Shown here: positions 17,822-59,752 of the stretch, one piece after another
How positions within the stretch are numbered: the first letter of the stretch is position 1
Layout: the number at the start of each line of letters is the position of its first letter
Origin: Myxococcales bacterium
GTDB lineage: Bacteria; Myxococcota_A; Polyangia; Polyangiales; DASUME01
Direction of reading: 5' to 3'
NCBI GenBank assembly: GCA_047601445.1
Contig: JASGJH010000001.1
Location: 5,632,001 to 5,696,000 of the forward strand
DNA: 64,000 nt
The notes under the pieces: model-generated
The model's input: only the letters and a program-made list of their open reading frames with translations
The model's database searches: none
Told to the model about the DNA's origin: nothing
Position numbers and translations under genes: made by a program

Positions 17822-18035
17822 GCGAATCGATATAGCTTGTTGACAGCGCGCGCGAGCAGGTCGACATTACAACACGTTGATGATCTCCGCGTCGTACACG
17901 CTGATGTCGATTGTTGGTGGCGCGACCCCACACTTAGCGGGCATCATCTACCCAACTAGAAAGGCTCTACTCGAGCGCTGAGGGCTCACGCTCCGAAGCA
18001 CTCGAAGTGAAGGCATACGCCTGCCGGAGGAAAAC

Positions 18036-18347
18036 ATGGCTGCGAAGAAGAAGAAAGCTGCGAAGAAGGCCGCTGCCCCCAAGAAGGCTGCCAAGAAGAA
18101 GGCTGCCCCCAAGAAGGCCGCCAAGAAGAGCGTGAAGAAGGCTGGCAAGAAGGCCGCCAAGAAGGCTGGCAAGAAGGCCGCCAAGAAGGCCGCCGCCCCC
18201 AAGAAGGCTGCCAAGAAGAAGGCCGCCAAGAAGAAGGCTTCCAAGAAGAAGGCTTCCCCCGTGGTGGAGACCATCTCCACCGGCTCCTCCGAAGGCGGCG
18301 GCGAGATGCTGCTTGCCCCCGGCGACGCGGGCGAAGCCAGCTTCTGA
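18036..18347 (+). CDS. Histone H1-like Lys/Ala-rich basic protein
   Basis: Strong RBS (GGAGGA); KKAAKK and AAPKK repeats over ~75 aa, then an acidic tail. Confidence 0.8.
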   Translation: MAAKKKKAAKKAAAPKKAAKKKAAPKKAAKKSVKKAGKKAAKKAGKKAAKKAAAPKKAAKKKAAKKKASKKKASPVVETISTGSSEGGGEMLLAPGDAGEASF

Positions 18348-50237: not shown

Positions 50238-51367
50238 ATGGCTGCGTGTTTTGAAACCGAATGCGAGGACGTACGACCCGAAGTCGTGCGGACCTTTTCG
50301 CCTGGAACCAGGCTTGGCCCCGATCTCACGATCATCGGAATCCTTGGCGAAGGAGGCACGGCCATCGTCTACAGCGCTCACCATCGAGTGCTCGAACGGG
50401 AAGTGGCCGTCAAGGTCTCCGTGGGGGACGAGTGCGGGCCGCAAAGTCGCCTCGTGCGTGAGGCAAAAATGTGCGCATCCGTTCGCGATGCCCACATTCC
50501 TCGCGTGTACGGGCTCGACTACCTGGAAGACGGCAGCCCCTACATGATCATGGAGAAGGTCGAAGGCGAGATGCTCACCAAGCTCCTCCAGCATCGACGC
50601 CTCGCGGTGCGCGAAGCCTGCGAGTTCGCCTGTGAACTGCTCGAGACCTTGGACGCCATCCACTTTGCGGGGCTGCTCCACCGCGACGTCAAGCCCAGCA
50701 ACCTGATGGTCGATCCCAACCCCGAAGCGCTCGTGCGCCTGCGCCTGCTCGACTTCGGCGTGGGAAGATCCTGCGCACCGAAGAGAGCCAGCTCCCGCAG
50801 CTGACCCGCAAAGGCGAGCTGCTCGGCACGCCCCTCTACATGGCGCCCGAGCAAGTCCTCACCATGCCCGTGGACGAACGCGCCGACATCTACGCAGCCG
50901 GCGTGGTGCTCTACGAGATGCTCGCCGGTCGCACGCCCTTCCACGGTGAAAGCATCGGCGAAGTCTTCGCGGCGGTCCTGCGCGACGAGGTCCCACCCTT
51001 GCGCAGCATTCGCCCCGAACTCCCGGCGTCACTCGAGCACCTGGTGCACCGCGCCATGGCTCGCCAACCCGAGGCGCGCTTCCAGACCGCATACACCATG
51101 CGCGCAGCCCTCTTGAGCGCGATCCAGGAACTCGTCGCGCTGGGGCCCGTGCCCGCCCTCGAAGCCCTCGAGACGCCAAGGGAAGGCGTGTACGAAGCTC
51201 ACCTCGAGACCGTGGAGACCCATTTCGAGGTGCTCACCGCCGAACTCGAGGAGGTCGACCTCGACCTCGAGGCCGAGGAGTGGTTCGCCCTGGAGTACAC
51301 CGAACGCTCGAGCGGTGAGCGCGTCAAGGGCACGCCTGCTCGCGCGCTCGCTGCGCGCTCCAAATGA
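50238..51367 (+). pseudogene. Cytoplasmic Ser/Thr kinase split by a one-base deletion at ~50762-50766 (real or sequencing error)
   Basis: GEGGTAIV, AVK, HRDVKPSN and DFG in one frame; KILRTEESQLPQLTRKGELLGTPLYMAPE and DIYAAGVVLYEML continue in the shifted frame. Confidence 0.8.
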
Positions 51368-51385: not shown

Positions 51386-51742
51386 GCCTCCGCGCCCATA
51401 CGAAGCCCGTGCGCACACGGGTTCTCCCTTCTGCGCGCGGTCGCCTCCGCGCCCATACGAAGCCCGTGCGCACACGGGTTCTCCCTTCTGCGCGCGGTCG
51501 CCATCGGCTGCGATCCACGGTTGTACGTCATGGGGTCGCTTAGGGCGGTGGGGCCGCGAACTCGCTCCTTGAGTGCACCCGAGTTTCGCTCAGACAGCGC
51601 GGCTCATGGGGCGGCTGACTTGGTGGTACTTCTGTTCTGCGATTTACCCCGGGGGCGTGCCATGCGCGCAGAAGGGAGAACCCGTGTGCGCACAGGCTTC
51701 CCCTGGGTGCTCGGTGTGCTCTAGCTCGGGTGAACTCGAGTG
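51386..51742 (-). repeat. Hairpin element copy A (core 51459-51700, 37-bp inverted arms) with a 57-bp tandem duplication at its left edge
   Basis: Arms 51459-51495 and 51664-51700 pair 36/37; the whole ~356-bp block is a near-identical direct repeat of 52565-52919. Confidence 0.9.
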
Positions 51743-51841
51743 GGCCCTTTGGGTGCACTCGGGTGCTCGGTGTGCTCTAGCTCGGATGCTCTCGAGTGTG
51801 ACCCATCCGAATCGCTCGAGTGTGCTCTGGGTTTCCCGGAT

Positions 51842-52480
51842 TCACTCGAGGGGGCTCGGGGCGCTCGCGTGGGCTTGTTTGAGGTCTTGCTCGAGTTCAC
51901 TCGACCGGTGGGCATTTTCGGTGGAGTCAGGGTCCGTGCTCCTCGGATCGGCGCTGACCGCCATGAAGACGATCGCGAAGAACAGCGAGAAGACCAGGAG
52001 CAACCGCGTCCACCAGATCGCTTCGTTGATGGAGCGAAACTTCGCGACCGCGATGCTGCTCAGTGTGTGGGTATGCTTCGCGTAGTGACCGACGATCTCG
52101 GACTCGCCCAGGCCCTGCAGGTCGCGCATCAATGCTTCTTCGCTCATCAAGGCCGTGTCAGGGAACGACGCGAGCGATTTGGAGGCGAGCGTGGCGCGCG
52201 CGGTCAGGGCGACCAGCGCGAGATGTGCGATCCACACGAAGCTCAAGATGGCGGGCGTGGCGGCGGCCGTGAGCAAGACCTTGTAGGACGTGCCGATCGA
52301 AGTCGTAAGCGCCGCGTTGGCAGCTGCGACGATGACTCCGACCACCGTCGTTGCGAAGGCGAGCACAGCAGCGGCCTTGGTATCTGCAAACTTGATGTAG
52401 TCGCTCGCATAGTCGCGATTGCTTCGAGCAAACTCAATGCGGAGATCAGACAAGGTGTCCTCGCATGCTGGCTTGGCCAT
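51842..52480 (-). CDS. Pycsar-effector-like transmembrane protein (PycTM/DUF5706-like)
   Basis: YIKFADTKAAAVL signature, two N-terminal TM helices, a soluble loop, then LSSIAVAKFRSINEA and a third TM helix. Confidence 0.75.
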   Translation of the reverse strand: MAKPACEDTLSDLRIEFARSNRDYASDYIKFADTKAAAVLAFATTVVGVIVAAANAALTTSIGTSYKVLLTAAATPAILSFVWIAHLALVALTARATLASKSLASFPDTALMSEEALMRDLQGLGESEIVGHYAKHTHTLSSIAVAKFRSINEAIWWTRLLLVFSLFFAIVFMAVSADPRSTDPDSTENAHRSSELEQDLKQAHASAPSPLE

Positions 52481-52564
52481 GTTCTAGCCCACTTGACGCT
52501 GCGATCCGAGCTTTCGACCGGCGGACCGAGAGTGTTGGCAAAATGCCACTAAAACGCCTCCTCC

Positions 52565-52919
52565 GCCTCCGCGCCCATGCGAAGCCCGTGCGCACACGGG
52601 TTCTCCCCTCTGCGCGCGGTCGCCTCCGCGCCCATGCGAAGCCCGTGCGCACACGGGTTCTCCCCTCTGCGCGCGGTCGCCATCGGCTGCGATCCACGGT
52701 TGTACGTCATGGGGTCGCTTAGGGCGGTGGGGCCGCGAACTCGCTCCTTGAGTGCACCCGAGTTTCGCTCAGACAGCGCGGCTCATGGGGCGGCTGACTT
52801 GGTGGTACTTCTGTTCTGCGATCTACCCGGGGCGTGCCATGCGCGCAGAAGGGAGAACCCGTGTGCGCACGGGCTTCCCCTGGGTGCTCGGGGTGCTCTA
52901 GCTCGGGTGAACTCGAGTG
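52565..52919 (-). repeat. Hairpin element copy B (core 52638-52877, 37-bp inverted arms) with the same 57-bp tandem duplication
   Basis: Arms 52638-52674 and 52841-52877 pair 36/37; direct repeat of copy A. Confidence 0.9.
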
Positions 52920-53039
52920 AGGGGGTGAGCTCTCAAAGCGCAACCCGTGTGCGCCCACGAGTTCACTCGAGCAGGGGCCCGACTCGAGCACACCAGGCTG
53001 AGTACACGCGTTCCCACATGAGCACGAGAACACACGAGC

Positions 53040-53339
53040 ACGAGGGCTCGCGGCGCGCACTCGGGTAGCCCGCTGGTGAGGGCAAGGGGCTTCCCTCTGC
53101 GCGCATGGCACGCCCCCGGCTGAAGCGCAGAGCAGAAGTACAACGTCCGCAGCGGCCTCATGAGCCGCGCTGTCTGAGCGAAACTCGAGTCCACCCGAGG
53201 AGCGAGTTCGCGGCCCCACTGCCACAAGCGATCTCGTGACGTACAACCGTGGATCGCAGCCCATGGCGACCGCGCGCAGAGGGAAGCCCCTTGCCCTCAC
53301 CGGCGGGCTTTCGGTGTGGGGCGCGCCGCGAGCCCTCGT
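53040..53339 (+). repeat. Hairpin element copy C (opposite orientation, different arm sequence)
   Basis: Arms 53067-53104 and 53272-53309 pair 37/38; an extra perfect 19-bp outer stem joins 53040-53058 and 53321-53339; same core as A and B. Confidence 0.9.
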
Positions 53340-53346
53340 ACGAGTG

Positions 53347-54957
53347 TTACTTGGGCGCCTTGCCCAGGCGCGTGAGACGGGCTTCGTCGGCCAGGTACTG
53401 CTCGTAGTTCATGTTGAGGTCGTAGTACTTCTCGCCCGCGAGCTCGATCACGCGGGTAACCAGCGAGTCGACGAACTGCACGTCGTGGGAGCTCACCATC
53501 ATGCTGCCGGTGAACTTGAGCAGGCCGTTGTTGAGCGAGGTGATCGACTCGAGGTCGAGGTGGTTGGTGGGGCCGTCGAGCAAGAGCACGTTGGGGTCTT
53601 GCAACATCATGCGGGAGACCATGCAGCGCACCTTCTCACCGCCCGAGAGTACGTTCGCGCTCTTCTTGCTTTCCTCGCCCGTGAACAACATGCGGCCCAG
53701 GAACCCGCGCACGAAGGTTTCTTCTTGGTTGGGGCTGTACTGCCGCATCCAGTCGATGAGGTTCGAGCTGGTCTTGAAGAATTCGTTGTAGTCCTTGGGG
53801 AAGTAGCCGAGGTTCACGGAACGGCCCCAGCGCAGCTCGCCCTCATCGGGCTTCACCTCGCCCGCCAGCACCTGGAGCAGCGTGGTGGTAGCGAGGTCAC
53901 TGCCGGCCACCGCCACACGCTCTCCCTTGGAGAGGGAGAAGCGCATGTTCTTGAACAGCGTGACGCCGTCGATGGACTTGCTGATGCCGTCGACGAACAG
54001 CACTTCCTTGCCCAGCTCACGCTGCGTATCGAACACGATGTACGGATACTTGCGCGACGAAGGCTTGATGTCGTCGAGCGTGATCTTGTCGAGCAGAGCC
54101 TTGCGCGAGGTGGCCTGCTTGCTCTTGGAGGCGTTGGCGCTGAAGCGCTGGATGAAGGTCTTGAGCTCCTTCATCTTGTCTTCCTTGCGCTTGTTGGATT
54201 CCTGGCGCTGCCGCAATGCAAGCTGACTGGTTTCGTACCAGAAGCCGTAGTTGCCGGTGAACAGCGTGACCTTCTGGAAGTCCACATCGGCGATGTGCGT
54301 GCAGACCTTGTCCAGGAAGTGGCGGTCGTGAGAGACCACGATCACGGTGTTCTTGAACTCGAGCAGGAAGTTCTCGAGCCACAGGATGGAGTCGACGTCC
54401 AAGTGGTTGGTAGGCTCGTCGAGCAGGAGGATGTCGGGCTCTCCGAACAGCGCCTGCGCCAGTAGCACGCGCACCTTCTCGCTGTCCTCGAGGTCCTTCA
54501 TCAGGCGCTTGTGCTTGTCCTCGTGGATGCCAAGGCCGCTCAGCAGGCTCGCCGCGTTGGACTCCGCGTTCCAACCGTCGAGCTCGCCGAACTCCCCCTC
54601 GAGCTCCGCAGCGCGCGCGCCGTCCTCGTCGCTGAAGTCGGCCTTGGCGTAGAGCGCGTCCTTTTCGGCCATCACCTTGTGCAGCTGGGAGTGGCCCATG
54701 ATCACGGTGGTGAGCGCGTCCGCCTCGTCGTACGCGAAGTGGTCCTGCTTGAGCACGCTCAGGCGCATGTTCTTGGGGATGACCACCCTTCCCTGGGAGG
54801 GATCTTGGTCGCCCGACAGGCACTTGAGGAACGTGGACTTGCCCGCTCCGTTGGCCCCGATCAACCCGTAGCAGTTGCCGGGGGTGAACTTGATGTCGAC
54901 GTTCTCGAACAGCGCACGGCTGCCGAACGACAGCGACAAACCTTCTGTGGAAATCAT
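53347..54957 (-). CDS. ABC-F family ATPase (YbiT/YkpA-like)
   Basis: GANGAGKST, LLLDEPTNHLD, VSHDRHFL, SANASKSKQATSR linker and a second NBD with LSGGE; no TM segments. Confidence 0.93.
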   Translation of the reverse strand: MISTEGLSLSFGSRALFENVDIKFTPGNCYGLIGANGAGKSTFLKCLSGDQDPSQGRVVIPKNMRLSVLKQDHFAYDEADALTTVIMGHSQLHKVMAEKDALYAKADFSDEDGARAAELEGEFGELDGWNAESNAASLLSGLGIHEDKHKRLMKDLEDSEKVRVLLAQALFGEPDILLLDEPTNHLDVDSILWLENFLLEFKNTVIVVSHDRHFLDKVCTHIADVDFQKVTLFTGNYGFWYETSQLALRQRQESNKRKEDKMKELKTFIQRFSANASKSKQATSRKALLDKITLDDIKPSSRKYPYIVFDTQRELGKEVLFVDGISKSIDGVTLFKNMRFSLSKGERVAVAGSDLATTTLLQVLAGEVKPDEGELRWGRSVNLGYFPKDYNEFFKTSSNLIDWMRQYSPNQEETFVRGFLGRMLFTGEESKKSANVLSGGEKVRCMVSRMMLQDPNVLLLDGPTNHLDLESITSLNNGLLKFTGSMMVSSHDVQFVDSLVTRVIELAGEKYYDLNMNYEQYLADEARLTRLGKAPK

Positions 54958-55200
54958 GGCTTCGATGGCTCCAGGCGTGCCTCCCGTACTGGCTCTCGTG
55001 CATCAAGGCAAACCGAACTTGAGCCTCCCGTGCTTTCTCGCGCGCTGACGGGCCTTTTTCGGCGCGCTCGCGCGGGCACTTTCGCGCGCTGGGATGCGCT
55101 CCGTGCCCTGAATGGGCTGAGTTTCTAGCGTCCCGAGACTCGTGGCTACCTCGGTGATCCTGGGTGCCCCAAGGGCCCCGCAAAACGCAGGGGGAACGCC

Positions 55201-56085
55201 ATGGCTCGTACGATCGCTGCCTCGCAGCACCCGTCGCATCGCCCAGTGCGTGCGGCCACCACCACACTCTCGCTGCTCACGCTATTCGGCGCCGGCTGCG
55301 CCAAGAATACGCCCCAGCATCAACAGCCCATCACCGAGAACCTGGCGCCCGCCGTGGCCAGCCCCGCTACCGAAGCCATCTCGATGCCGGACCGCGACTC
55401 CACCGGGTACTACTCCAACGTGGCCGACGCCAAGGAGATGGGGGTGACGGCCCCAATGGAAGAGCCGGGGACGCCGGAATACGACGAGAACGAGGCTGCA
55501 CAGCCCAAGCCCCGCGTGATCGTCCACGAGTTCGTGCCGAAGGTCACCCGCGTGATGGTGCCCACCATCACCACCATGCCTGCAACGGTCACGGAGACGC
55601 CCGTGGCGGCGACGGGGCTCACCGATGGCCAAATCGTGCGCGTCGCACAGACCATGCAAGACGCGGAACTCGCCCAGGCCAGCATCGTGGCCGAACGCGC
55701 GCAGAGCGACCGCGTGAAGAAGTTCGCGGCCCAGCTGCAGTCCGAGAACAAGAACTTGAAGGATCGGACCCAGGCGCTGGCCAAGAGCGACAAGCTGACG
55801 CCCGTCGAGAGCACGCTCTCGGCCGACATGCGTGTCAAGGCCAGCCAGGAGCTCACCAGCGTGGAGCTGGCCAAGCCCGAAGAATTCGACAGGGCCTTCA
55901 TCGACGCGCAGGTGGAGCAGAACCAGCAGCTGTTGGAACTCCTGGACAACCGCCTGATCCCGGACGCCAGTGAACCGAAGCTGAAGGCCACACTGAGCAA
56001 GTCGCGCTCGGTGCTCGAGCGTCAGGGGGAAGAGGCCAAGGAGATCCAGCGCGTGATGCAGAACGCGCCCGAGAGTACCCCCTGA
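55201..56085 (+). CDS. Lipoprotein with a C-terminal DUF4142-like domain
   Basis: Lipobox GAGC; LTDGQIVRVA...ELAQA...VKKFAAQL...FDRAFIDAQV. Confidence 0.75.
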   Translation: MARTIAASQHPSHRPVRAATTTLSLLTLFGAGCAKNTPQHQQPITENLAPAVASPATEAISMPDRDSTGYYSNVADAKEMGVTAPMEEPGTPEYDENEAAQPKPRVIVHEFVPKVTRVMVPTITTMPATVTETPVAATGLTDGQIVRVAQTMQDAELAQASIVAERAQSDRVKKFAAQLQSENKNLKDRTQALAKSDKLTPVESTLSADMRVKASQELTSVELAKPEEFDRAFIDAQVEQNQQLLELLDNRLIPDASEPKLKATLSKSRSVLERQGEEAKEIQRVMQNAPESTP

Positions 56086-56144
56086 GGCGGCGCACCTGAC
56101 CACGCCCCGATCACGGTAGATCGCAACAAGGAGCGACCGAACGC

Positions 56145-57425
56145 ATGGACTTCTCCGGCGCTGCCCACAGTTCGCTGACGCCGCTCGCGATCATTCTCGC
56201 CCTGATGCTACTGCTGCCGAGGTTGTTCGAGTACCTGAAGTTGCCGGGCATGCTCGGACTGATCGCGGGAGGCGTGCTGCTCGGCCCCCATGGCTCCGGT
56301 TTGCTCGGCGCGGAACATCCCTCGATCGACGTCTTGTCCGAGATCGGCAAGCTCATGATCATGTTCTTCGCCGGTCTCGAGATCGATCTGGCGAAGTTCC
56401 GAGAGGTCAAGTACCGCTCGCTTGCGTTTGGCCTTACGACATTTGCGGTTCCACTGGTGCTCGGCGTGATCATCGGGCGCTACTTCCACTACGGCTGGCC
56501 GGCTAGCTTCTTGATCGGCTCGCTGATGAGCTCGCACACGTTGCTGGCCCTGCCGCTGCTCCAACAGATGGGCCTGATGCGCAACAGCGCCGTGACCATC
56601 ACGGTGGGCGCCACCGTGTTCACGGACGTGCTCTCGCTGGTGGTGCTGGCGATGTGCCTGTCCATCCACACCCAGGGCTTTTCCCCCAGCGTTCTCACGC
56701 GCGACTTGGTCGAGCTCGCCATCTACATTCCGTTGCTGGTGGCGGGCGTGGGGCGTGCGATGCGCTGGGTCCTGCACCGGCTCGGTGACTCCGAACTGAC
56801 CCGCTCCTACGTGTTGCTGCTGACGTTGATCCTGGCCGCGCTGGGAGCGGAGTTGATCGACCTCGAAGGGCTGGTCGGCGCGTTCTTGGCGGGCTTGTCC
56901 GTGAACGCGGCCATGCAGGGGCGCTCGGTGCACACGCACCTGGAGTCGGTGGGGCACCTGCTGTTCATCCCGGCCTTCTTTCTCACCACGGGCCTGTTGA
57001 TCGACTTCGGAGCCTTCGGTCGCGTGCTGAGCGAGAGTCCGTTGCTGGTGGTCGGCATCGTGGCGGGCTTGGTGTTCTCCAAGTGGCTCGCCGCCGAGAT
57101 CGCGGGCCGCGCGATGCGCTTCGACGGCTCGACGGTTCGACTGATGTGGTCCCTCACTTTGCCCCAGGTCGCAGCCACGCTTGCTGCCACCATCGCCGGC
57201 TATCAGGCGCTCGATGCCAGGGGTGAGCGCTTGTTGGACGCGTCGGTCCTCAACAGCGTGCTGGTCCTGATGGCCGTGACCGCGGGGCTTGGCCCCGTCC
57301 TGACGGCTCGCTTCGGCCGGGAGGTCCTCGCCAACGGAGGGGGCGTCGCACCGAGCCCGGTGGGCGCGCCGGCGCTGCCGGAGCCGTCGAGCGCGCCGGG
57401 AGGCTTGCGCCCGCTGCCACGGTGA
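56145..57425 (+). CDS. Cation:proton antiporter (CPA2 family)
   Basis: LPGMLGLIAGGVLLGP, FFAGLEID, TDVLSL and GAFLAGL motifs; about 12 TM helices. Confidence 0.9.
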   Translation: MDFSGAAHSSLTPLAIILALMLLLPRLFEYLKLPGMLGLIAGGVLLGPHGSGLLGAEHPSIDVLSEIGKLMIMFFAGLEIDLAKFREVKYRSLAFGLTTFAVPLVLGVIIGRYFHYGWPASFLIGSLMSSHTLLALPLLQQMGLMRNSAVTITVGATVFTDVLSLVVLAMCLSIHTQGFSPSVLTRDLVELAIYIPLLVAGVGRAMRWVLHRLGDSELTRSYVLLLTLILAALGAELIDLEGLVGAFLAGLSVNAAMQGRSVHTHLESVGHLLFIPAFFLTTGLLIDFGAFGRVLSESPLLVVGIVAGLVFSKWLAAEIAGRAMRFDGSTVRLMWSLTLPQVAATLAATIAGYQALDARGERLLDASVLNSVLVLMAVTAGLGPVLTARFGREVLANGGGVAPSPVGAPALPEPSSAPGGLRPLPR

Positions 57426-57531
57426 CGCTTGTAACGGGCCGTTAACAGGTTCCGACAGGGGCTGGGTTAGCTGCGCGCAGGCGCACACCTGGCTCCTGCT
57501 TACCCAAGGCCTTCGGCACCGCGAGGAATCC

Positions 57532-58041
57532 ATGTCTCTCCATCTCGTTACCGCGCCCCAGTTCTCGAACATGCTCGGCAACCTCGACCGCTGGCTCGAC
57601 AAAGCCGTCGAGTACGCGGCCTCGCGCTCCTTCGACGCAAACGTGCTCCTCCAGGCACGCCTGGCTCCGGACCAGTTTCCGCTGCTGAGGCAAATTCAGG
57701 TCGCCTGCGACACCGCCAAGATCTCCGCTTCCCTGGCCACGGGAAAGACGCCGCCCAAGCACCCTGACACCGAGCAGACCGTCGCCGAGCTCAAGGCCCG
57801 CATCGCGTCGGTGCGCGCTTACCTCGACGAGTTCACGGCCGCCGACTTCGAGGGCGCCGAAGGACGCGTGCTGAGCCCGCCTGCGCTCCAAGGCCGCTCC
57901 GCCAAGGCCGTAGACTACGTGGCTGCCTTCTCGCTGCCCAACTTCTACTTCCACGTATCCATGGCCTACGCGATCCTGCGCCACAACGGCGTGCCGCTCG
58001 GCAAGAAGGACTACATCGGCCGCGTGAAGTTGATCGACTAA
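57532..58041 (+). CDS. DUF1993-family (DinB-like) protein
   Basis: LLQARLAPDQFPLLRQIQVACDTAK and LPNFYFHVSMAYAILRHNGVPLGKKDY motifs; GAGGA RBS. Confidence 0.9.
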   Translation: MSLHLVTAPQFSNMLGNLDRWLDKAVEYAASRSFDANVLLQARLAPDQFPLLRQIQVACDTAKISASLATGKTPPKHPDTEQTVAELKARIASVRAYLDEFTAADFEGAEGRVLSPPALQGRSAKAVDYVAAFSLPNFYFHVSMAYAILRHNGVPLGKKDYIGRVKLID

Positions 58042-58123
58042 CTCTCTCCCTGGCTCGCGTGCGCCCGAAGGAGCCCTAGCGGGAGCAATCTCGACTAAAG
58101 TTTCTTTCGCGGGTGCAGGCTCC

Positions 58124-58648
58124 CTAGGAGCCATCCGAAGCGCTTCCCATTTGCTCTGCGAGCCACCTCAGCTCTTCCACCATCTCAGGGTGGTCAGCGA
58201 TGACGCGTTCATTTTCGTGGCGATGGTTCAAGCCATAGCGCTCGTGAAGCTCGGTATCCTTGATGCCAATGAGCGCCTCGGCGACTCGGGGAACTGCGTC
58301 CCGCCGGAGCTCTCTTAGCGCCGAAACCAAGGCCGCAGCGGCCGTACTGGTCTCGGAAACGACCATTTCTTCGAATGCCTCTAGAGAACCGTCGGCGGCG
58401 GGTGCGATGAGGACATCGTAGACATCATCAGCGCTGCACGCGATGACCTGCGGATCGCCTTCAAGTGCAACCTTCGCCTTGGCCAGTAGCTCGTGAAGAA
58501 ATGCTGCAGGTTCTCCGCCAACCGCTCGTGTGTAGATCGAGCAAACGCGTTCTGCACAACGAAGTGCAAACCCAAGCACGGCGGGCAGGGGTGCGCGCTT
58601 CGCCCACGCATCAATTACCCTAAGTTGCTCTAGCGGTTGCACGAACAA
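58124..58648 (-). CDS. Hypothetical helical protein, DUF416/immunity-protein-like
   Basis: FALRCAERV near the N-terminus and HPEMVEELRWL near the C-terminus; visibly more A/T-rich than its neighbours. Confidence 0.55.
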   Translation of the reverse strand: MFVQPLEQLRVIDAWAKRAPLPAVLGFALRCAERVCSIYTRAVGGEPAAFLHELLAKAKVALEGDPQVIACSADDVYDVLIAPAADGSLEAFEEMVVSETSTAAAALVSALRELRRDAVPRVAEALIGIKDTELHERYGLNHRHENERVIADHPEMVEELRWLAEQMGSASDGS

Positions 58649-58704
58649 TCTCCGATCTACGGCGTTCTCGCGCGGCGCCGGGGCGCTCGAATGGGCTCGG
58701 GCAG

Positions 58705-59286
58705 TCAGGGGCTCTGGAGGGTTAGTGTGTCTGCGTCGAGTGCGTCATCCGTGAACGAGGCGCTCGCGTACTCGGTCGTGAGGCTCGAGAGGTAGGCCTG
58801 ATTCTTTTCGTTTTCTCCGTAGGCGAGGCGGATCTCGTCGTACGAGGAGACGCGACCTTTCACCTTCACATCGACGAGCACGACACGGTCTGCGTCCACG
58901 TCGCGCAACGAGAGCGTGCCCAGGACGGCCATTTCGTATTCGGTGGCGCACGCTGAGGCGCCCTTGAAGAAGGTACGGGTGCCACAGGCGGAGGCGCGGT
59001 TGCCCGTCCAGCCGCGCATCCAGCTCGCGCGCGCGTCCTGCTCTTCCGTCGCGGCCTCCAGCATCAGGCTCACCTCGTAATGGTGGCGATCGTTCGTCAC
59101 GAACGACCAGGTACCCCGCTCGTTCACCTCGGCGATCTTCGACAGCAGCTCCATCTCGACCTTGCGCGTGTCCACGTCGTTGTCTTCGCTCGTGGCCTCG
59201 CAGCCAGTGAGGTAGCCGGGATTCACGACGAACATCACGGAGAACACCGTGACGCGAAACAGCCACTTCAAGGATTGCTGGAGCAT
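58705..59286 (-). CDS. Hypothetical lipoprotein
   Basis: Hydrophobic leader with LTGC; host-like codon use. Confidence 0.65.
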   Translation of the reverse strand: MLQQSLKWLFRVTVFSVMFVVNPGYLTGCEATSEDNDVDTRKVEMELLSKIAEVNERGTWSFVTNDRHHYEVSLMLEAATEEQDARASWMRGWTGNRASACGTRTFFKGASACATEYEMAVLGTLSLRDVDADRVVLVDVKVKGRVSSYDEIRLAYGENEKNQAYLSSLTTEYASASFTDDALDADTLTLQSP

Positions 59287-59525
59287 GACTTCTCGCAGGT
59301 AAGGGGAGACCCGGATTGTACACGGAGCGCCCTTTCAACGAGGGAACGAAAAGATCCCCGCCCAGGGTGATCCCCGCAAGCCTCACACCACCCGAGGGCA
59401 CGAGATTCCCGGGCAAAAGCGAAGCGAACACGAGGGCTACTCCGGGTCCGCCAAGAAACCACTCGAGAAACCTCGAGCAAACACCGAGCGAACACATGGC
59501 TCTCGTGAATTCCCACGTGTGAACC

Positions 59526-59752
59526 CCAGCGGGAGCAAGAACTCCCCTTCAGCGCGCATGGCACGCCCCGCGTAAAGCAAAGAACGGACGTGCGACCAAG
59601 TCAGCCCCCATGAGCCGCGTTGTCTGAGCGAAACTCAAGTGCGCTCAAGGAGCGAGTTCGCGGCCCACCGGGACAAGCGATCGATCGACGTACGACGGTG
59701 GATCAAAGCCCATGGCGACCGCGCGCTGAAGGGGAGTTCTTGCTCCCGCTGG
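59526..59752 (+). repeat. Hairpin element copy D (third arm variant)
   Basis: Arms 59526-59557 and 59721-59752 are a perfect 32-bp inverted repeat; core catgagccgcgttgtctgagcgaaactc...aggagcgagttcgcggccc. Confidence 0.9.

Follow-up and report, generated by a model that had tools for sequence, protein, structure and literature searches.

How can a repeat keep two long arms complementary to each other while the arm sequences differ from copy to copy, and what would act on such a structure? This question is raised by a repeat of about 240 nt that occurs four times (copies A–D) in a stretch of 64,000 nt from a Myxococcales bacterium. The whole stretch, referred to here as the window, covers 5.632–5.696 Mb of the single 9.5-Mb contig of the genome. 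The repeat family is real and apparently undescribed. We consider, with about even confidence, that its members are genus-restricted, non-autonomous mobile elements predicted to form a conserved-core clamp on the A/C-rich strand, and that their enzyme is probably encoded elsewhere or has been lost.

Structure of the repeat units

An earlier annotation of the window (the sequence-only reading) had reported four copies with self-complementary arms. A direct check of the sequence bore out the coordinates of all four, and the arms pair to the extent that had been claimed. All four belong to one subfamily, F1, and B and C together form one head-to-head pair:

51459–51700, minus strand: unit A, F1, L-type arms (36/37 paired), 98% identical to B.
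51701–51900, minus strand: leader of A, degenerate repeats with a period of roughly 10 nt; far end approximate.
52638–52877, minus strand: unit B, F1, L-type arms (36/37), on the left in the head-to-head pair.
52878–53066, no strand: 189-nt spacer, equal to the two back-to-back leaders of B and C.
53067–53309, plus strand: unit C, F1, R-type arms (37/38), core at 53105–53271.
59380–59525, plus strand: leader of D; start approximate.
59526–59752, plus strand: unit D, F1, third arm type (32/32).

The leader of A has about its first 60 nt in common with the leader of B, and the B/C spacer resembles those of two other F1 pairs in length and ends. Read on the A/C-rich strand, a unit starts with its leader, in which degenerate repeats are most often spaced 10 nt apart, followed by an arm of ~32–44 nt, a conserved irregular junction and ~60 unpaired nt. 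The second half consists of an apical hairpin, ~60 nt more, the partner arm and a short tail. The apical hairpin varies in sequence and is preceded by an invariant AGC.

The genome contains 24 full units, 18 of which are arranged as nine head-to-head pairs with shared leaders. In the three F1 pairs, the same two arm types occur with spacers of about 190–197 nt, and two further loci are internally deleted pairs in which both outer ends are kept. The units are intergenic, and for 16 of the 24 a facing stop codon lies no more than 100 nt from the end of the unit, compared with 12% for random positions; one of the 16 is doubtful, since a gene start is called there. At one F1 unit (L023:5335–5461), the dnaK reading frame enters the 3′ end of the unit before stopping.

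Matching of the arms

The sequence-only reading proposed that pairing, and not arm sequence, is under selection. The free arm sequences with kept pairing and a strand-specific wobble bias agree with this proposal. However, selection is not the only cause, since mirrored 1-nt indels and hybrid arms indicate templated copying. Among 12 copies with near-identical arm types, tallied by eye with two more diverged F3 copies excluded, 11 differences are mirrored between the arms (three of them 1-nt indels) and eight are one-sided. At 6.135 Mb, the left unit of an F2 pair carries two outer arms: one matches the inner arm of that unit and the other the inner arm of the right unit, whose own outer arm is a hybrid. 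A copy in the congener G005 also combines two different arm types, possibly through a mis-join. Template switching is known to homogenize the arms of inverted repeats (PMC5941160). Tandem duplication of the outer arm is also seen at A, at B and at five or more other loci, and C has a second, outer stem:

51387–51443, minus strand: extra 57-nt tandem copy, made up of the 3′ end of the core of A, its outer arm and tail (seen in the sequence).
52566–52622, minus strand: further tandem duplicate of 57 nt, covering the outer arm and tail of B.
53040–53058, plus strand: 5′ half of the outer 19-bp stem of C, pairing with 53321–53339 (seen in the sequence).
53321–53339, plus strand: 3′ half of this stem; its end lies 7 nt short of the stop codon of the ABC-F gene (53347).

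Among 30 copies, the isolated mismatches in the arms, scored on the A/C-rich strand, comprise 20 G·T, 2 A·C and 11 others (p = 1.2e-4), and the G·T mismatches occur in both orientations to the replication fork. In the core, substitutions are not significantly asymmetric between the strands (C>T 24/175, G>A 13/135, p = 0.29), which makes a mutational cause of the wobble bias less likely, although power is limited and the copies are related. Two processes likely keep the arms matched, namely copying of one arm from the other and retention of pairing on one strand.

Matched arms could also be an assembly artefact or arise by chance, and the sequence-only reading had named such an artefact as an observation that would overturn it. 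Hairpins can mislead assemblers, and a copy in the congener G005 (L184), which joins two different arm types that do not match, is possibly a mis-join. However, this genome is one contig and four independently assembled congeners show the same architecture with other arm sequences, so an artefact is unlikely; as the isolated mismatches are moreover strand-biased, we find this explanation hardly credible.

Core conservation and folding

In 11 aligned F1 copies, the mean identity of the core is 82% (minimum 71%), compared with 47% for the arms. Copy C with its arms folds with a z-score of about −9 against 200 shuffles, whether as RNA on either strand or as DNA, whereas a 179-nt core stretch without arms gives −0.70 and −0.99. 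The arms thus supply all of the excess stability. The inner stem gagccgcg/cgcggccc (53162–53169 with 53209–53216 in unit C) is conserved, as the sequence-only reading had noted, but it does not serve as evidence of covariation: its invariance makes it uninformative, and none of the 23 core pairs shows a two-sided change among the 11 F1 copies. A small-peptide reading of the core was discarded, as 1-nt indels among the copies disrupt the ATG at the start of the core.

The conserved core could instead be the product. The units would then be multi-copy RNA genes, or an RNA-borne element resembling short interspersed elements (SINE-like), transcribed outward from the shared spacer, with the arms as a processing stalk, as around rRNA, that releases the conserved 170-nt core. 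This structured-RNA option has the wobble bias as its one positive support, and we consider it rather unlikely overall. The bias falls on the A/C-rich strand and not on the read-through strand of most neighbouring genes. The unpaired core is conserved in sequence and length across subfamilies, including the AGC before the variable hairpin, the leaders repeat with a 10-nt period, and the unit length is near the 241 nt of the Mx162 retron transcript (PMC6868368). Most partial copies in the genome retain the 3′ half, which also counts for this option; however, some retain the 5′ half instead (L182 and L187), which weakens a strict 3′-truncation rule. The core alone folds no better than shuffles and lacks covarying pairs, and occupancy is patchy between species. 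A scan for sigma-70 promoters at the copies returned no site, a result of little weight in this organism.

Searches for a known RNA or a reverse transcriptase (RT) also count against an RNA product. Rfam gave no match at the gathering score in the window and six loci, and by E-value only chance matches; the sequence-only reading had likewise been unable to assign a named family. The genome has two RT matches, at 1.21 and 4.49 Mb, neither of them near a copy, and 20 RT loci of the genus contain no element (best element-model score 9.8 bits). The RT at 4.49 Mb (L018:103–2763; 515 aa, of no clear class) is the gene directly downstream, after a 480-nt gap, of one with an end that matches anti-phage family DS8, and this locus is possibly a defence locus.

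Family size and distribution

The 24 full units fall into three related subfamilies, F1 (nine full units and one 3′ half), F2 (nine) and F3 (six). F2 and F3 were discovered by a genome scan for long inverted repeats, and the F3 profile matches F1 copies down to E = 7e-7. A shorter family, F4 (about 150 nt), has 20 profile matches in the genome (e.g. L133:4307–4942) and the same layout of variable arms, conserved core and head-to-head arrangement; short motifs, the sole basis for the comparison, suggest that F4 may be homologous to F1–F3.

Several observations concern F4 and other repeats. One F4 pair brackets an 800-nt stretch, apparently with a hydrolase-like gene. An element of the IS3 family of insertion sequences (IS) has seven copies in the genome; of the three that were covered, two interrupt F4 hairpin units (L129:4630–7865 at 1.654–1.657 Mb and L132:2868–4386 at 9.268–9.270 Mb) and one adjoins a third F4 unit, and IS elements that target REP repeats provide a parallel. 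In a region of lower GC (L140, 168.7–171.1 kb), some 2 kb separate another F4 unit from a fragment of a tyrosine recombinase. Further unrelated multi-copy hairpin families of 150–200 nt are also present, for example at 2541597, 5029741, 1901939 and 810213 of the genome.

Models built on sequence alone detected homologues, which have new arm sequences, in four of nine congeneric genomes (G004, G005, G007 and G008) and in none of 30 other genomes of the order; a match in G003 was dropped, as it had no arms. An order-wide model search of 142 genomes outside the genus gave two weak matches, apparently inside genes and without an element. BLAST with the F3 core found nothing in 400 genomes of the class, with at most two candidates scored per genome and a sensitivity low enough to miss the congener copies. 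Pattern scans gave seven loci in GTDB (three Polyangiales copies and four by chance), no match to three sequence patterns in viral contigs and one match in metagenomes, without an element. BLAST against phages and plasmids gave nothing better than E = 0.7. The family therefore appears restricted to the genus, as no homologue was found outside it in these searches. A literature search, whose reach left out most subscription journals and supplements, found no paper on this repeat family.

Occupancy of gene ends between species

The evidence for mobility comes from comparison with the congeners. The kinase and ABC-F genes on either side of copies A–C abut in G004, where the gap is about 25 nt; the 2-kb block of A, cargo, B and C is therefore an insertion here or a loss there. 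The Ser/Thr kinase gene to the left of copy A (50238–51367) occupies two frames here and one in G004, which is either a real frameshift or a sequencing error.

Regarding the reverse comparison, 17 genes flank the congener copies, and 12 of them have a homologue here (three only 42–53% identical). Nine of these 12 homologues carry no element at the 3′ end, and the other three (argJ, ERG24 and a TetR gene) carry an element of a different subfamily, compared with elements at 38 of 5457 gene ends genome-wide. These two groups of sites indicate that the family spreads into new gaps and also stays at, or comes back to, old ones.

The same sites bear on an explanation without a dedicated enzyme, in which ordinary recombination, gene conversion and template switching account for spread and turnover and the hairpin is kept at gene 3′ ends for the host, through a role in termination, in the stability of mRNA or in the binding of a protein near the origin. 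The three shared gene ends with different subfamilies in different species fit this explanation, as do the chimeric and internally deleted copies and the lack of a mobiliser among the enzymes found. All 12 F1–F3 loci are also near the origin, within 2.0 Mb (at most 1.98 Mb), with the origin set at 5.77 Mb by dnaA and the GC-skew minimum; F4 and a half copy at 310 kb do not follow this pattern. However, sites without prior homology, such as the nine empty gene ends and the block absent from G004, must have been colonised. The strand favoured by the wobble bias is not that of most read-through mRNAs but the opposite one, a terminator needs no conserved 170-nt core, and no terminator-like site was found at the copies. 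We therefore judge an enzyme-free origin unlikely.

Genes between copies

The following features lie between the copies of the window:

51842–52480, minus strand: open reading frame (ORF) of 212 aa, Pycsar-effector-like (PycTM), between the direct copies A and B.
58042–58088, minus strand: inverted remnant of the outer arm and tail of D, 77% complementary over 47 nt.
58124–59286, minus strand: a pair of ORFs, 174 and 193 aa long, that belong to no known family and lie between the remnant and D.

The 212-aa ORF matches the Pycsar-effector Pfam family at E = 7e-4, below the cut-off, with an Atlas feature score of 0.92 and a TM of 0.73. It is absent at the corresponding site of G004 and is likely cargo; no cyclase was found among ten window ORFs scanned. 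The remnant directly follows the DUF1993 stop codon and is likely the lost partner of D. The two ORFs that it brackets together with D are possible cargo. Elsewhere, at 5.033–5.037 Mb of the genome, an F3 unit or remnant marks off each of three genes, two of which are paralogues with 60% identity. Outside the main subject, a Lys/Ala-rich 15-nt tandem repeat at 18021–18279 of the window probably encodes a histone-like protein.

Single genes between copies, as at A/B, before D and in the three-gene run, are what would be expected of attC-like sites in a gene-cassette system served by a tyrosine recombinase in trans. However, the attC core consensus occurs in none of the 24 units, so the attC-like option raised by the sequence-only reading is not supported in this form. 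None of the nine tyrosine-recombinase (PF00589) matches in the genome is near a full F1–F3 unit, an IntI-specific model not having been run. The 60% identical paralogues fit local duplication and most pairs enclose no gene, and a cassette system is improbable.

Search for an enzyme and the proposed mechanism

We return to the reading of the repeats as non-autonomous mobile elements. In the proposed mechanism, what is recognized would lie in the conserved core and in the irregular junction of the arm base, and the arm would be just a ~35-bp duplex. The arms would be re-matched by template switching or gene conversion, both between arms and between pair partners, and templated copying plus selection would keep the clamp matched. 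The folded form would be a single strand, most simply single-stranded DNA (ssDNA) handled by an HUH-type enzyme, as in REPINs. This is the weakest step, proposed by analogy with no enzyme identified. Finally, recombination between copies may let genes accumulate or duplicate at these sites.

The search for such an enzyme was made family by family without whole-genome annotation, and an enzyme of an unrecognised type could escape it. The sequence-only reading saw no cognate enzyme in the window, and we likewise found no such gene beside any copy in a chosen subset of neighbouring genes. DUF559 is also missing from the genome. The GIY-YIG matches in five congeners lie in frames of 289–1243 aa, at loci that were not scanned for the element. 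In G007, a single IS91-like Y2 transposase element has only 10–15-nt matches to the family; downstream of this transposase (L162:1883–2384), two inverted end-region copies bracket ~300 nt of an unrelated gene. Long Y1/RAYT-like genes of about 370 aa occur in G001, G008 and G009 (L145, L149, L150 and L151). Several are flanked by their own 22–29-bp inverted repeats, unrelated to the family; these loci contain no element, and this genome has no homologue of these genes.

Several results weigh against a mobile element acted on in trans. First, enzyme candidates are lacking: no RAYT/HUH, retron RT, IS110, IS91 or Ssn-type gene lies beside the copies in the neighbour subset; in the genome, no RAYT is above the cut-off, with only one IS200-type TnpA. 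Y2 transposases are absent from G000, G004 and G008, including this genome, IS110 has no match to PF02371 in the genome (PF01548 was not searched), and there is no small GIY-YIG in the genome, its matches being confined to open frames of 611 and 719 aa away from the copies. Second, no target duplication was seen in the flanks, the empty sites of the congeners being too diverged to align or give a boundary, and the sites shared between species also fit old vertical inheritance. Third, the template-switching study covers spacers of up to 70 bp, compared with about 170 nt here (PMC5941160). The wobble bias is weaker in the extra sets (G·T:A·C of 1:1 in G005 and 6:2 in F4), the related copies are not fully independent in the mismatch counts, and the one conserved mismatch in the F1 inner stem would be a wobble on the opposite strand. 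Lastly, in REPINs the layout is reversed, with conserved arms, whereas here the arms vary and the interior is conserved.

A stronger version of the proposal is speculative and, in our judgement, doubtful: the repeats may be a new class, whether of non-autonomous elements or of multi-copy RNAs, in which a sequence-free ~35-bp clamp displays, on one strand, a conserved two-loop core of 170 nt to an enzyme. This enzyme would rewrite one arm from its partner, return to the same gene ends in different species and allow head-to-head pairs to capture genes such as the orphan Pycsar effector. If an enzyme or RNA product is found, this would be a new ssDNA or RNA recognition system; otherwise, it is a lineage-specific repeat family of moderate interest. 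The hybrid and half-corrected arms offer a natural system for the re-matching of inverted repeats over a 170-nt distance, and the sites would be local foci at which genes are gained and duplicated.

Comparison with known systems

The msDNA-like repeats of Nannocystis are reportedly a further myxobacterial comparison for the family. The msr–msd region of retron Mx162 is similar in being about 240 nt long and myxobacterial, with a stem of its two ends closing the unit (PMC6868368). Unlike retrons, the units here have no adjacent RT and no long msd-like hairpin, and form head-to-head pairs instead; the base after the arm, compared with the contexts of the retron priming G (PMC6868368), differs among subfamilies on both strands. 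The NTS–SRM repeats of the Ssn nuclease are also hairpin repeats thought to act as ssDNA, but SRMs are about 30 nt long with a conserved palindrome, and GIY-YIG genes here are away from the copies (PMC11893778). Bacterial MITEs (miniature inverted-repeat transposable elements), including bcr1 and the integron mobilization unit, share the size, the long stem-loop, the position at gene 3′ ends and the bracketing of genes by two copies (PMC3184786). In contrast to MITEs, the copies lack a conserved common terminal inverted repeat and have no matching IS ends.

REPIN and BIME repeats with RAYT are the closest to the reading that we favour. They are likewise non-coding extragenic hairpin repeats with inverted doublets as the likely unit (PMC3116915, PMC3733652), and they similarly form tandem clusters and lineage-restricted subfamilies with no enzyme inside; REPINs are inverted doublets in extragenic space that are moved in trans (PMC3116915). 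The differences lie in size and number, with units of 240 nt here compared with 20–40 nt in REPINs and only tens of copies, and in the GTAG/CGTC tag, as GTAG is near the 5′ end in 3 of 24 units and no tag is constant at either end. No RAYT gene flanked by repeats occurs in this genome. Thus, one of four REPIN/RAYT features, the inverted extragenic doublet, is present and three are absent. The suggestion of the sequence-only reading, an attC-like or REPIN-like ssDNA substrate or a structured RNA, stands as far as REPIN-like pairs, gene-end sites and presence or absence between species are concerned, and is not supported as to the attC core and the link to an enzyme. If the favoured reading is true, the family would extend REPIN-like repeats to a form with free arms and a conserved interior.

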